Below the pieces are notes generated by a model, which made no database searches, had not been told where the DNA came from, and was given only the letters and a program-made list of their open reading frames with translations. Shown here piece after piece: positions 11,627 to 27,224 of a stretch of DNA of 64,000 nucleotides. Source of the stretch: Octopus vulgaris. Its lineage: Eukaryota. Where the stretch lies: assembly GCA_951406725.2 (NCBI GenBank), contig OX597832.1, positions 45,818,001 to 45,882,000 on the forward strand, given 5' to 3'. How positions within the stretch are numbered: the first letter of the stretch is position 1; every line of letters starts with the position of its first letter. Position numbers and translations under genes: made by a program.

Positions 11627-12143
11627 CAGTGAAGATTATTTGCCAACATGATGTGGTAGTCCCGGTTGGAACGAAAGTTACTGTCATTTAGCCCCAGGAA
11701 ACATCGTCTCCAACTCGCTATACGACATACATTCCGTGTCCTTATACATTCGAACAGGGGATTCCAGTACCTCCGCTCAGTACAAAGTAGTATCTGTGGA
11801 CCTCAGTGTCAGTTTGAAAATTATATACTTTTTCGAACGGGAATTTAGCAGAGTCATCTCCGTCAAGCAGTCATTCTGTGCAGAGGAAGGGAAATAACCA
11901 AGACATCGCGGTTCAGAGATATTGCTTTGTACTGAGAGGGGATGCTGGACACCCCTGTTCGAAAATATAAGGTCTCATATTGTGTGCCGTATAGCCTGGT
12001 GGAGACAATGTTTCGTGGGGCTATATATATATAACATTCATCCCAACCGCGTCTGCCAAATTATGTTGGCAAATGATATTTACTTTAGAGTACAGTTACA
12101 GAATTCTCTCGTTAAGAGGTTTAGAAATAATACTTTTTCTGTT
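11627..12143. mobile_element. Structured (TA)n-associated element, family S, copy 1: long copy plus a diverged inverted arm
   Basis: Imperfect ~165-bp inverted repeat (about 11638-11802 vs 11910-12073) carrying TAGCCCCAGG/CGTGGGGCTA. Colinear motifs are shared with 22557-22951. Confidence 0.65.
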
Positions 12144-12724
12144 ACACACACACACACACACACACACACACACACACATATATATATACATGTATATATA
12201 TATATATATATATATATATATATATATATATATGTATGTATATATGTGTATATATATATGTATATATATGTATATAATGTATATATGTATATAATATATA
12301 TATGTATATATATATATATATGCATATGTATATATCTCTATATGCATATATACATGGATATTTATATGTATATATATATAAGATATATATTTGCATATGT
12401 AAATATGTGAGTAAATATATGTATATATATATATATATATATGTGTGTGTGTGTGCGTGTATATATATGTATATATATGCGTATATATATATATGTACAT
12501 ATATGTATATATGTATATATATGTATATATATATATGTAAATAATTATGTAAATGTATATATATTCATGTATATGTATGTATATGTATATATATGTATAT
12601 ACAAATATGTATATATATGGATATCTATATATATGTATATATGTGTGCAAATATATACATATATAGACATATATATATATATATATATATATATATATAT
12701 ATATATATATATATATATATATAT
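12144..12724. repeat. (CA)n followed by a degenerate (TA)n/(TATG)n low-complexity tract
   Basis: Directly visible. Confidence 0.95.
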
Positions 12725-13489
12725 TGTATAGATAAGTAACAGTCGCACAATATAGATACATTCGTGCAAACAGCCATACATGATTTAATGTTTATAAATA
12801 ACATCAAGAATAATTCGGCCTGACATTCTATTGTAATAAATTTCTGCCAATCTGAAACAGTAAATGACAGGACAAACAATTTATACCAGAATTCATTTTA
12901 GATAAATTGAGACTAATATAAACAGACGAAAAAAACAACAACAAAGAAACAAAACCATAATGAAATAAAAATCAAAGAAATACAACTGAAGTATCTGAGA
13001 CGGAAATAAAATATAATTATTAGACAAAATATGATGGGACAGTTTTCAATCAGTGAAGTACAGAAATGTATAATAATAACAATTATTAAAAAACTAAGAA
13101 GAAAACGAGACGAAAAAAATGTGTACATTATGAAAGTGTTGACAGTTTCAAGTGTTTCGAGAAAGAACGAAATATGTAAGATGAATCAGTCTCGTTCAGA
13201 AATATATGAGTGACGCCATTTTGTTCGTTGCTCTACTTTTAATGATATCTACTGACACAATTGCCAAAGTAGTTCTTTCGCACAGAAGATCGTTCGTATA
13301 AACACACTGACAAAGCGTTAACAGATATTGCATGCAATCTATGAAAATTGTTTATGTCTTTTGCAAATAGGTGGGCGCCCGTCAGTAGTGTTAATAGTGA
13401 AACAAAACGATAGAAGAAACAAAAATTTAATAAAATTGCAAAGTCGATCAATCATTGCTGTTGTCTATTTATGAATTTAAGTTTGCGTG

Positions 13490-13986
13490 TATCTATATAC
13501 ATATACATATACATACATATATGTATATATATATATACATATATATACATACATATACATATATATATACATATACATAAATGTATGTATGTATGCATGT
13601 ATGTATGTATGTATATATATATATATATATATATATACACACAAATATATATACAAGTATATATGAATGTATGTAGTATGCATGTTTGTATGTATGTATA
13701 TATATATATGTATATATATGTATGTATATATATATATATATATATATATATATGTATATATGTCTGCATATATATATTTAGTTATGTATATATATATATG
13801 TGTATGTACGTTTATATATATATATATATATATATATACATATATATATATATATATATATATATATATATATATATATATATATTTATATATGTCTGCA
13901 TATATATATTTAGTTATGTATATATATATATATGTATATACGTTTATATATATATATATATATATATATATATATATATATTTATA
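13490..13986. repeat. Degenerate (TA)n tract with an internal higher-order duplication
   Basis: The block TATGTCTGCATATATATATTTAGTTATG...TACGTTTATA occurs twice (about 13759 and 13891). Confidence 0.9.
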
Positions 13987-14170
13987 CCGGAGTAAACACA
14001 TAAATGTGAAACAAGGTGGGAAAAAAGAGTACTCAAATACCAGTGGTAGAGTAATAAGCTTTATTTAAAAGCAGCAGAAAATTCAACAAAACCTGTTACT
14101 CTGAGTTTCACGTTCCCGAAACTCAGAGTAACAACAGGTTTTGTTGAATTTTCTGCTGCTTTAAATAAAG
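13987..14170 (-). mobile_element. Penelope-like pseudo-LTR remnant (family H2) with an inverted arm, inside (TA)n
   Basis: Near-perfect hairpin 14059-14109 / 14118-14170. Carries the hammerhead 3' half ACG-GGAA-CGT-GAAA-C-TC-AGAG on the minus strand. Homolog at 43955-44052. Confidence 0.6.
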
Positions 14171-14225
14171 TATATATATTTATATACATATATATATATA
14201 TATATATGTATATATATATATATAT

Positions 14226-14470
14226 AACGGGAAGCTTTATGAAAATAGACAAAAGACGAAGGCAGGTTTACGGAAATAAACAAAAGACGAAGGCAGGTGG
14301 AATACAAACATACAATTGTATTAGTATGGCGCTCAGTAAATATAAATAAAACAAGTCTTTAACGTTTCGAGCCTACGCTCTTCAACAGAAAGATACACAG
14401 AGAAAAAACACAGAAAGAAGGAGAGAAAAAAATATGCGTGCAGAGGCTAGCGAATCAACATGGCGATCTG
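14226..14470 (-). mobile_element. Penelope-like pseudo-LTR remnant (family H1) inside (TA)n
   Basis: Homologous to 30914-31020 and 53171-53330; contains a minimal hammerhead motif; flanked by (TA)n. Confidence 0.65.
14356..14393 (-). ncRNA. Minimal type-I hammerhead-ribozyme-like motif with a variant core
   Basis: Minus strand: TCTTT-CTGTTGA-A-GAGC-GTAG-GCTC-GAAA-CG-TT-AAAGA. Stem I TCTTT/AAAGA, stem II GAGC/GCTC, palindromic minimal stem III. The core has U in place of the conserved A6. Confidence 0.55.
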
Positions 14471-15338
14471 TATATATATATATATATGTACATTTCAGCA
14501 TGCACTTTTCTCAATCTATCTATTTATCTATCTACCTATCTATGTGTTTGCCTGTCTGTCTATCCGTCTGTCTATACGCTTGTCTGTGTATGCATGTCTC
14601 GTTGTCTATCTGCCTGCATTCGTTTCATTCCTTTTCTTACTTTCTTTTTCAGTCTCTCTCAGAATTTATCCATTTTAAGCATAAATTTGTTTTTCACATT
14701 TTATATGCACGTATGTATGTCTCTCTCTCTCTCTCTCTCTCTCTCTCTCTCTCTCTCTCTCTCTATATATATATATATATATATATATATATATATATAT
14801 ATATAGATAGATAGATAGATATACATATACATATATAGACAAATATATATATGTATATATGTATGTATGTATATATATATAGAGAGAGATGTATGTAAAT
14901 ATGCTTGTATGTATGTATATAACTATATGCATAATATATATATACTTACACATGTATTTGTGTGTATGTTAGTGAGTGTGTATATATATATATATATGCA
15001 TGTGTGTGTATGTGTTTATATATGCTTGTATATGTAGATGAATACTTCAGAAAACAGTCAACACTTCGAAATGTATCAAATGTATTTTGCTTTCCTTTTC
15101 TTTGTTTAATTATAATATCTGTTATTGTTTTTTTCTGTGAATCAGTGATTGAAAATATCTCATATTTTGTTTCTTTATCTAATTATATTTTACTCCCGGG
15201 TTTTTTTAATGGTTATTTGTGTTTGTCTCTTATCACTAGTGCGTGGATATATTTAAACTTTATTTATATATACCGTTCGTTTCTGTCGAAGCGTCGGTGG
15301 TCATACAAGTACGCGCTCTCGGTCGCAGTTACATATAC

Positions 15339-25665: not shown

Positions 25666-25881
25666 TTTATTAATAAACATAGAAATTAGAGTATTGACAC
25701 TTTTTCATCTTCAAATTGTTATATCATTTTCGTAGAAGTTGAGAAAATTGATCAAATATTCATAGATTTACGACGGATAGAAGCGACTGGGAATTACTCA
25801 AATGGCGGTATTTATTTACGGCTTTGTGAGCTTTCAAGACATACGAGTATTTGATAGGCAAATGATGGAGAAAATTGCTTT

Positions 25882-26110
25882 CTATTCTTTTACTTGTTTC
25901 AGTCGTTTGACTGCGGCCATGCTGGAGCATCGCATCGAAGGATTTTTGTCGAACAAATCGATCCCAGGACTTATTTTTTGTAAGCCCAGTACGTATTCAA
26001 TCGGTTTATGTAGCCGAATCCGCTGTCTTAGGGGGTCATAAATACACCAACAACGGTTGTCAAGTGTTGATGGTTGGGACATATACAGACATAAAACACA
26101 CACACATATA
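25882..26110 (-). mobile_element. 3' half of SINE family A
   Basis: TTTTACTTGTTTCAGTCGTTTGACTGCGGCCATGCTGGAGCA. Confidence 0.75.
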
Positions 26111-26226
26111 GGTATGTACAGATATATATATATATATACATACATACATATATATATATACATACACACACACCCACACACACACATATATATATATATA
26201 TATATATATATATATATATATATATA

Positions 26227-26513
26227 TATCTATACAATATGTTACATTACTCGGTAGTCAAGATAAAACTCTGAGTTTTAGATGCCGAAGTGGAAATCCA
26301 CAACACCATCTCTGGCTAGAAATAGCTTCGGTTATCTGGCTAAGAAATAGCCAGATAACCGAAGAGATGGTGTTGTGGATTTCACTTCGGCATCTGAAAC
26401 TCAGAGTTTTATCTTGACTACCGAGTAATGTAACATATTGTATAGATAAATTTCCTCTATTTACATAATATTGAGGTCTCTTTCTTTCTTTTGTTATCTT
26501 ACCGTTTTATCAA
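26227..26513 (+). mobile_element. Penelope-like pseudo-LTR remnant (family H3) with an inverted 5' arm, inside (TA)n
   Basis: About 87-bp arms at 26227-26313 / 26363-26448, plus an inner stem; unpaired tail 26449-26513. Hammerhead-like CCGAAGA-GATG...CATC-T-GAAA-C-TC-AGAG at 26359-26406. Homolog at 44071-44235. Confidence 0.6.
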
Positions 26514-26653
26514 TATATATATATATATATATATATATATATATATATATGTGTGTATATATATAACAAAATAAAGACAGGTGTAAACCATTCGTTTTAT
26601 TATCCATATATATATATATATATATATATATATATATATATATATATATATAT

Positions 26654-26885
26654 ATCGTAAAGTATATTTGACACTTAAATGTAGCTAACCCTTAAAGGTT
26701 TCCATTGTAAATACTGATAGGGCATAGAAAGTGTGTCAATACCCAGCTGGGGGATGTGTCCTCCTGGGGCTACAAGCTAGAGTGGCATCCACCCTTAAGG
26801 GTTAGTCACGTTTAAGTGGCAAATATACATCACGATGTCGTGCAGCTACTGATTATGCCTCGCTCAGAGATTTATTATTGCTTAC
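26654..26885 (+). mobile_element. Structured (TA)n-associated element, family S, copy 3
   Basis: About 45-bp imperfect inverted arms, CCTGGGGCTA, and terminal CTCGCTCAGAGATTTATTATTG homologous to the family-S end. Confidence 0.65.
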
Positions 26886-26905
26886 ATATATATATATATA
26901 TATAT

Positions 26906-27224
26906 ATAACATAAGGGACTAAAGCCATCTGAATATGGCTAGGGACAGGGCAGGGTGGTGGGGGTGTTACTGTTGCATTTAGCCCCAGGCGAACATCGAC
27001 GTCACCAGAAAGGCTCGACACCGTCACGGTGCCCTTAACCTGCAAAGGTTAAGGGCACCGTGACGGTGTCGAGCCTTTCTGGTGACGTCGATGTTCGCCT
27101 GGGGCTAAATGCAACAGTAACACCCCCACCACCCTGCCCTGTCCCTAGCCATATTCAGATGGCTTTAGTCCCTTATGTTATCGAGCAGTTACTGTCTATA
27201 TCCCTTTTAGAGAATTATTATTGC
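26906..27224 (+). mobile_element. Structured (TA)n-associated element, family S, copy 4, forming a 136-bp palindrome plus tail
   Basis: Arms 26906-27041 and 27046-27181, loop GCAA, tail 27182-27224. Homologous to 22557-22740. Confidence 0.75.

Follow-up and report, generated by a model that had tools for sequence, protein, structure and literature searches.

A probable Penelope-mobilized, retrozyme-type family with a type I hammerhead in Octopus vulgaris

Animal retrozymes lacking long terminal repeats (non-LTR retrozymes) are units of 170–400 nucleotides (nt), or 350–390 base pairs (bp) in mussels, which are expressed as circles and are suspected to be mobilized by Penelope-like elements (PLEs) (PMC7229834). 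Tree evidence for this link was presented in a preprint (Li, Clavereau and Pollet 2026, 10.64898/2026.07.22.740005). PLEs produce inverted as well as tandem insertions with a 30–40-bp tail; Naiads prefer (TA)n, and Neptune elements show a microsatellite bias (Craig 2021, PMC8557442). The tail corresponds to the stretch between two internal start sites of the reverse transcriptase (RT) (Frangieh 2024, PMC11167929). The canonical metazoan type I hammerhead is dimeric, with 6 bp in helix I, 4 bp in helix II, 1–2 bp in helix III and a palindromic loop, and the PLE hammerheads of Schistosoma include U3-A8 cores (Cervera and de la Pena 2014, PMC4209133). Hammerheads of the U3-A8 type are active (Perreault 2011, PMC3088659). 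Among cephalopods, 235 Hammerhead_1 matches are reported from the giant squid (PMC6962438); the main text of PMC7229834 does not mention cephalopods, and the accessible text of PMC13282606 mentions neither retrozymes, hammerheads nor Naiads. Our literature searches found no paper on a cephalopod retrozyme, although Repbase, Dfam and article supplements lay outside these searches and may list such a family as an unclassified repeat. Here we describe family S, a group of four short insertions in a 64,000-nt stretch of Octopus vulgaris DNA (the window; assembly GCA_951406725.2, contig OX597832.1, positions 45,818,001–45,882,000).

Family S is probably a non-autonomous, non-LTR retrozyme-type element of ~354 nt copied by the RT and GIY-YIG endonuclease of a PLE. 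The unit is closed by a tail-to-head junction, has a type I hammerhead architecture and folds in a strand-specific manner, and its copies bear a PLE footprint between (TA)n flanks. A PLE is most likely the mobilizer. A prior sequence-only reading had proposed a non-autonomous, Penelope-mobilized, retrozyme-like family with a conserved fold on the chosen strand, and this much of the reading was right. The insertions are composed of the following parts.

11627..11798, minus strand: inverted arm of copy 1, without the tail, 5'-truncated 0–12 nt from the predicted cleavage site
11796..12143, plus strand: long arm of copy 1, a nearly complete unit that belongs to a divergent and older subfamily; tail 12086–12143
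22557..22896, minus strand: complete unit of copy 2, 340 nt (~354 nt with stem II), 46% GC, non-coding
22897..22948, minus strand: second 52-nt tail of copy 2, directly upstream of the unit head, 50/52 identical, giving a more-than-unit-length insertion
26654..26699, minus strand: inverted arm of copy 3
26700..26885, plus strand: main arm of copy 3, truncated at the rod base; tail about 26837–26885
26906..27040, minus strand: inverted arm of copy 4, identical to the main arm
27045..27224, plus strand: main arm of copy 4, truncated at the rod base; tail about 27180–27224

Copies 1 (11627–12143), 2 (22557–22951), 3 (26654–26885) and 4 (26906–27224) are each flanked by microsatellites, with (TA)n directly at seven of the eight ends and (CA)n followed by (TA)n at the right end of copy 1; all four thus occupy the AT-rich or microsatellite targets expected of PLE-mobilized insertions. 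By blastn, copy 2 matches both copy 4, at E 1e-29, and copy 3, at E 1e-11. The direct match between copies 3 and 4 is weak, and copy 1 is tied in by a 33-nt match (E 6e-4). Whole-unit alignment of copies 1 and 2 scored 155 versus 85±8 (maximum 107) in 300 shuffles. Flanks, blastn and the shuffled alignment together bear out the earlier claim of four related (TA)n-flanked insertions at these coordinates. The ordered motifs that the copies were said to share do recur in that order, but their sequences are looser than had been described, GTCGAGCRGTTACT being exact only in copy 2 and TTTATTATTG only in copies 2 and 3. A covariance model and an nhmmer profile of the conserved 3' fold discussed below, both built on five arms, detected no further members in the window beyond the eight known arms (next match E 0.33). 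A three-motif pattern had 0 matches in viral contigs and three in metagenome contigs, all of which were judged to be chance on reading.

Every insertion (4/4) combines an inverted or partial-tandem repeat with a one-ended tail. Copies 1, 3 and 4 consist of an inverted arm and a longer arm ending in an unmatched tail. In copy 2 the last 52 nt of a 340-nt unit occur once more, in front of that unit. Identity between arms is 132/132 in copy 4, 37/44 in copy 3 and 123/160 in copy 1, and 50/52 between the tail copies of copy 2. The identities of the inverted arms imply that the family was active over a long span and also recently, the identical arms of copy 4 marking a recent insertion. All four copies place the repeat boundary at a single consensus position, constant within about 3 nt, ~8–12 nt before GTTACT. 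This common boundary had been recognized previously, but it lies 44–58 nt from the end rather than 45–70. Copies 3 and 4 both start at the base of a long rod and stop short of the hammerhead. An element moving as DNA (a miniature inverted-repeat transposable element, a foldback or a Helentron-like element) with hairpins acting in the single-stranded state would account for the palindromic look of three insertions and for their TA targets. We give it almost no credence: it is already largely refuted by the inversion center, which differs in every copy, and it also conflicts with arms whose lengths differ by a fixed tail, a tandem copy, the strand bias of the fold and the presence of a hammerhead.

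The unit of ~354 nt (340 nt in copy 2 plus 14) has 46% GC, no LTR and no protein, and the open reading frames (ORFs) of at least 100 aa that cross the copies are microsatellite run-throughs. The RNA fold of the copy 2 unit has a z-score of −5.54 on the minus strand (0/100 shuffles) and −1.55 on the plus strand, while the 3' cores alone have an unremarkable folding energy (z −1.55 to +0.35). Two further features are defined between the head and the 3' end.

22728..22844, minus strand: long rod with the hammerhead at its tip, strands 22831–22844 and 22728–22743 (fold prediction)
22845..22852, minus strand: conserved unpaired AUUAUAUA between head hairpin and rod

Contig variants were taken from four public runs, X1, X3, X11 and X9 (sets of 1517, 1649, 1027 and 152 contigs, respectively), the last of which may derive from RNA. 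Variants at 22836 and 22841 preserve rod pairing on the minus strand alone. In copies 1 and 2 the long stem and the neighboring TATATAAT occupy homologous places, confirming the exchange of stem sequence suggested before, and in the contigs the stem has yet another sequence, the third, next to the word ATATATA. A word similar to AUUAUAUA occurs in this third subfamily (contig loose ends at 22855), so that it is conserved in three subfamilies; it may be a TATA-like promoter word or a target-pairing strand, both of which are guesses.

Each of the four runs contained contigs that span the tail-to-head junction, and these differed at up to 14 letters. Together with the same head in two divergent subfamilies, this recurrent junction favors a small, closed unit. 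The alternative, which we regard as unlikely, is that the copies are stumps of a long autonomous PLE, being 3' ends (pseudo-LTRs) that suffered truncation or internal deletion. Stumps would agree with the truncation of two of the four insertions far below unit length, with a summed contig depth 10–40x higher over the 3' fold and tail than over rod and head (depth is not copy number), and with the 54–59 contigs per DNA run that exit the tail into sequence without a common consensus. They are at odds with a head that recurs within ~350 nt, a hammerhead of canonical rather than minimal PLE geometry, and many indels unlike those of coding sequence.

The sequence-only reading had supposed that a different structured RNA replaced the hammerhead. 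To the contrary, the two copies that extend far enough each contain a hammerhead.

22766..22812, minus strand: copy 2 hammerhead, type I, capping the long rod
11866..11926, plus strand: decayed type I hammerhead scaffold of copy 1, 25/30, cleavage-site equivalent 11913

In copy 2 a 6-bp outer stem and a 3-nt bulge facing one U are joined to a 6-bp stem I, the core UUGACGA, GAAA, and a 2-bp stem III with a palindromic UAUA loop, followed by GUC; the predicted cut lies between 22779 and 22778. This copy has U at position 3 and lacks the 14-nt stem II (gap between 22791 and 22790). Any such skeleton arose in 18/5000 shuffles and an equally good one in 4/5000, with a descriptor composed after the motif had been seen. 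Loose contig ends at exactly 22789/22790 provide the 14 extra letters in X1 (6 contigs), X11 (1 and 4) and X9 (1), and one 110-letter contig with 14 gaps in X3 supplies the same letters. Read by eye, they form a 4-bp stem II (G.U, A-U, G-C, G-C) with a 6-nt loop.

Copy 1 was scanned with all spacings fixed beforehand from copy 2 plus 14 nt. The best site scored 25/30 (outer stem 6/6, stem I 5/6, core 9/11, stem II 2/4, palindromic loop III CGCG), a score reached by 0/2000 shuffles of copy 1 (maximum 24). The stems differ in sequence from those of copy 2 but the spacing is identical; in both copies the hammerhead lies 103 nt upstream of TGGGGCTA, and MAFFT on its own sets a 14-nt gap in copy 2 at the stem II point. 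At the family level, helices of 6 bp (I), 4 bp (II) and 2 bp with a palindromic loop (III) correspond to canonical metazoan type I geometry. Three other candidates were dropped: hammerhead-like words on the plus strand of the tail, which are not kept in copies 3 and 4; TGCTTAC as a bivalve-Naiad loop, the word being hammerhead outer stem plus bulge; and the idea that cleavage is proved by where the inverted arm of copy 1 breaks off, its junction being ambiguous over 12 nt.

Downstream of the rod, the arms share a second structured region.

22559..22728, minus strand: conserved 3' fold (five-arm alignment and helix model)

Its order is hairpin A, a helix around hairpin B ending in TGGGGCT, an AAA linker, a ACAGTAAC/GTTACTGT helix around hairpin C, and a small terminal hairpin. 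The earlier claim that these stems covary stands in part. Across five arms, the six-helix model pairs 87.2% of 148 cells versus 80.1±1.8 in shuffles (0/500), sliding the helix partners lowers pairing to 26–46%, and both-sided changes occur in 7/32 pairs (24/500 shuffles). The sample is small, the model was drawn from the same five sequences and the shuffle control ignores relatedness, so these pairing statistics support, but do not prove, covariation. RNAalifold finds four of the six helices, the AGTAAC/GTTACT helix and the terminal hairpin not being recovered. Contig variants retain pairs on the minus strand only, with the inner pair of hairpin A in three states, and G.U pairs outnumber A.C pairs 19 to 5 on the chosen strand in a strand-neutral search that picked some spurious helices. 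As previously noted, AGTAAC/GTTACT becomes AGTGGC/GCTACT, one A-U changing to G-C and one to G.U. The hairpin reported as CACCGT/ACGGTG at 27.0 kb is in fact GGCACC/GGTGTC with a 5-nt loop. A TGGGG/CCCCA pseudoknot, also suggested earlier, is possible in that CCA follows in 5/5 arms; it shows no compensatory change, its spacing varies and its G run is also claimed by a rival helix.

The 3' fold might itself be a self-cleaving RNA not yet described, as the sequence-only reading allowed, and its cut would then set the boundary common to all copies. In keeping with this, the fold is conserved and covarying, the Rfam search called for at that stage returned no match for it (nor any at gathering score in the 64 kb, where E-value matches were chance-level or hairpin-type), the boundary is constant, and helix order, AAA linker and possible pseudoknot resemble the topology of the pistol ribozyme. 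Crude word scans of the arms nevertheless found no hammerhead blocks in any order that recur across arms and no pistol AG..GCG or twister words; a loose word of the hepatitis delta virus (HDV) type occurs in 3/5 arms without the L3 word upstream. Readings of the fold as an HDV, pistol, twister or permuted hammerhead ribozyme were dropped, only five weak combinations having been found, in copy 1 only. Moreover, the element already carries a hammerhead, the fold has few invariant unpaired bases, the pseudoknot lacks covariation and a published RT-start explanation for the boundary exists. Self-cleavage by this region is accordingly very doubtful. The boundary fits the two internal RT start sites of a PLE (PMC11167929) better than a cleavage site, and the fold is more likely an RT recognition and start region. 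On present evidence family S does not represent a new ribozyme class. A bolder and distinctly improbable version would see the last 170 nt as a pseudoknotted RNA of an undescribed class, kin to Naiad 3' ends, whose role would be to cleave or else to position the PLE RT at its two start sites, with AUUAUAUA past the terminus pairing with nicked (TA)n. If true, this would constitute an RNA-guided targeting module for a telomerase-related enzyme.

The identity of the mobilizing PLE can be narrowed only tentatively. A Naiad-type partner, with the 3' fold as a non-catalytic relative of the Naiad 3' end, is compatible with the retrozyme-type unit and is a possibility, though not one we would expect to hold. 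All five cephalopod Naiad consensi prefer (TA)n, and visual comparison shows a GACACC/GGTGTC hairpin with GTGGGGC ~20 nt later at the 3' end of both Naiad_Obim and Naiad_Ovul, as in family S. On the other hand, cephalopod Naiads are described as long inactive, yet the arms of copy 4 are identical; no other Naiad end has these words among the matches listed; and microsatellite bias is also found in Neptune elements.

In a separate observation by eye, the Naiad 3' ends in File S5 of PMC8557442 (Obim, Ovul, three Acropora families and one probably from Beroe) contain a GUA site, GAAA and CUGAUGA in this order, with stems I and III pairing over 5–8 bp; the 5' strand of stem II precedes the three blocks. 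From these words, the ends look like a split-block-C version of the type-SGC non-circular permutation of the hammerhead (PMC10085705), although the clade is reported to be without hammerheads. Our literature search found no paper describing a hammerhead-type permutation in Naiads.

We propose that tandem or read-through transcripts of family S would be cut by the hammerhead, acting as a dimer via the palindromic stem III, into unit-length RNA, which may circularize. A PLE protein would bind the conserved 3' fold and then nick (TA)n DNA, and reverse transcription would begin at two fixed internal sites ~45–50 nt apart, giving the tail and the common boundary. Stalling at the base of the long rod could yield truncated copies 3 and 4, a second priming the inverted arm, and copying round a circle or along a tandem precursor the more-than-unit copy 2.

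Several observations weigh against this explanation. Tails of 44–58 nt exceed the 30–40 bp printed for PLEs, and no RT/GIY-YIG gene was seen by eye among window ORFs of at least 100 aa. The window holds one complete unit plus 52 nt and no array of two full units. It contains no intact hammerhead copy, and Rfam hammerhead models have no match in it; the motif is hard to spot because copy 2 lacks stem II and has U3, the version in copy 1 has decayed, and truncation has kept copies 3 and 4 from reaching it. When the whole window is scanned, a score of 25 is also obtained at three positions in TA repeats, which pair trivially, so only the within-element shuffle counts. Among the contigs, a 22792 C>T variant turns G8 into A8 and creates a U3-A8 pair, but its share of depth is 1.4% in X1, 19% in X3, 6% in X11 and 13% in X9, and no C3 variant is listed; most contigs therefore seem to carry U3.G8. 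Finally, an anole PLE inserted in vitro without the need for hammerhead cleavage (PMC11167929), and family S may thus be able to do without cleavage and circle formation. Since both hammerheads in the window are damaged, the copies here are probably dead offspring.

The earlier link between PLEs and retrozymes rested on co-occurrence (PMC7229834) and on the sequence trees of the 2026 preprint. A PLE-specific inverted-plus-tail footprint on a retrozyme-type unit is more direct evidence of PLE mobilization. With a natural substrate of 350 nt, a conserved 3' fold and two fixed boundaries, family S also offers a compact handle on the features that a PLE RT recognizes and on the choice of (TA)n.

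Other repeats occupy the window. A second (TA)n-associated PLE-like family comprises an inverted arm with a ~65-nt tail at 26230–26513, a truncated monomer at 44073–44233 and a palindromic relative at 14059–14170; it has a hammerhead-like motif at 26359 with a CCGAAGA core, a long stem II and a 6-bp stem I. Three PLE-type insertions from two families are stacked at 26230–27224, within 1 kb of one (TA)n tract, which suggests a reused target. An insertion between (TA)n runs at 44250–44848 has a ~80-nt internal direct repeat and, by eye, hammerhead-like words on the minus strand, for which a relaxed scan gave no convincing match. Short inserts of a third family lie beside (TA)n at 14227–14470, 30915–31020 and 53177–53335. 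An abundant 184-bp unit without an Rfam match forms short tandem arrays and dispersed copies (8376–9055, 16962–17369, 48609–48986 and others). ORF fragments at 46224–46757 and 62505–62862, both on the minus strand, resemble, respectively, a transposase of the mariner type and the C-terminal end of a LINE protein of the CR1 type.

Set against known systems, the 3' fold is loosely like the pistol ribozyme in helix order but lacks the core words, as it lacks those of the type-SGC non-circularly permuted hammerheads (PMC10085705). Family S resembles the cephalopod Naiads (Naiad_Obim, Naiad_Ovul) in its (TA)n preference and, by eye, in short similar words within the last 150 nt. Those elements are, in contrast, 3.4–4.4 kb long, coding, without canonical hammerheads and described as long dead (PMC8557442), and family S departs from the Naiad clade in carrying a hammerhead of canonical form. 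With PLEs in general it shares inverted or partial-tandem insertions, a one-ended tail, an AT-rich or microsatellite target and a type I hammerhead, including U3-A8 forms. It differs from them in its closed 354-nt unit, the absence of an ORF, a canonical rather than minimal hammerhead and tails of 44–58 nt. Compared with animal non-LTR retrozymes, family S consists of dispersed (TA)n copies with inverted arms and a fixed tail instead of tandem arrays, and has U at position 3 and a conserved 170-nt 3' fold. It is like them in a non-coding unit within 170–400 nt, GC below 50%, strong self-pairing, a head-to-tail junction, a type I hammerhead of canonical geometry with a palindromic stem III, and a PLE as the suspected mobilizer.

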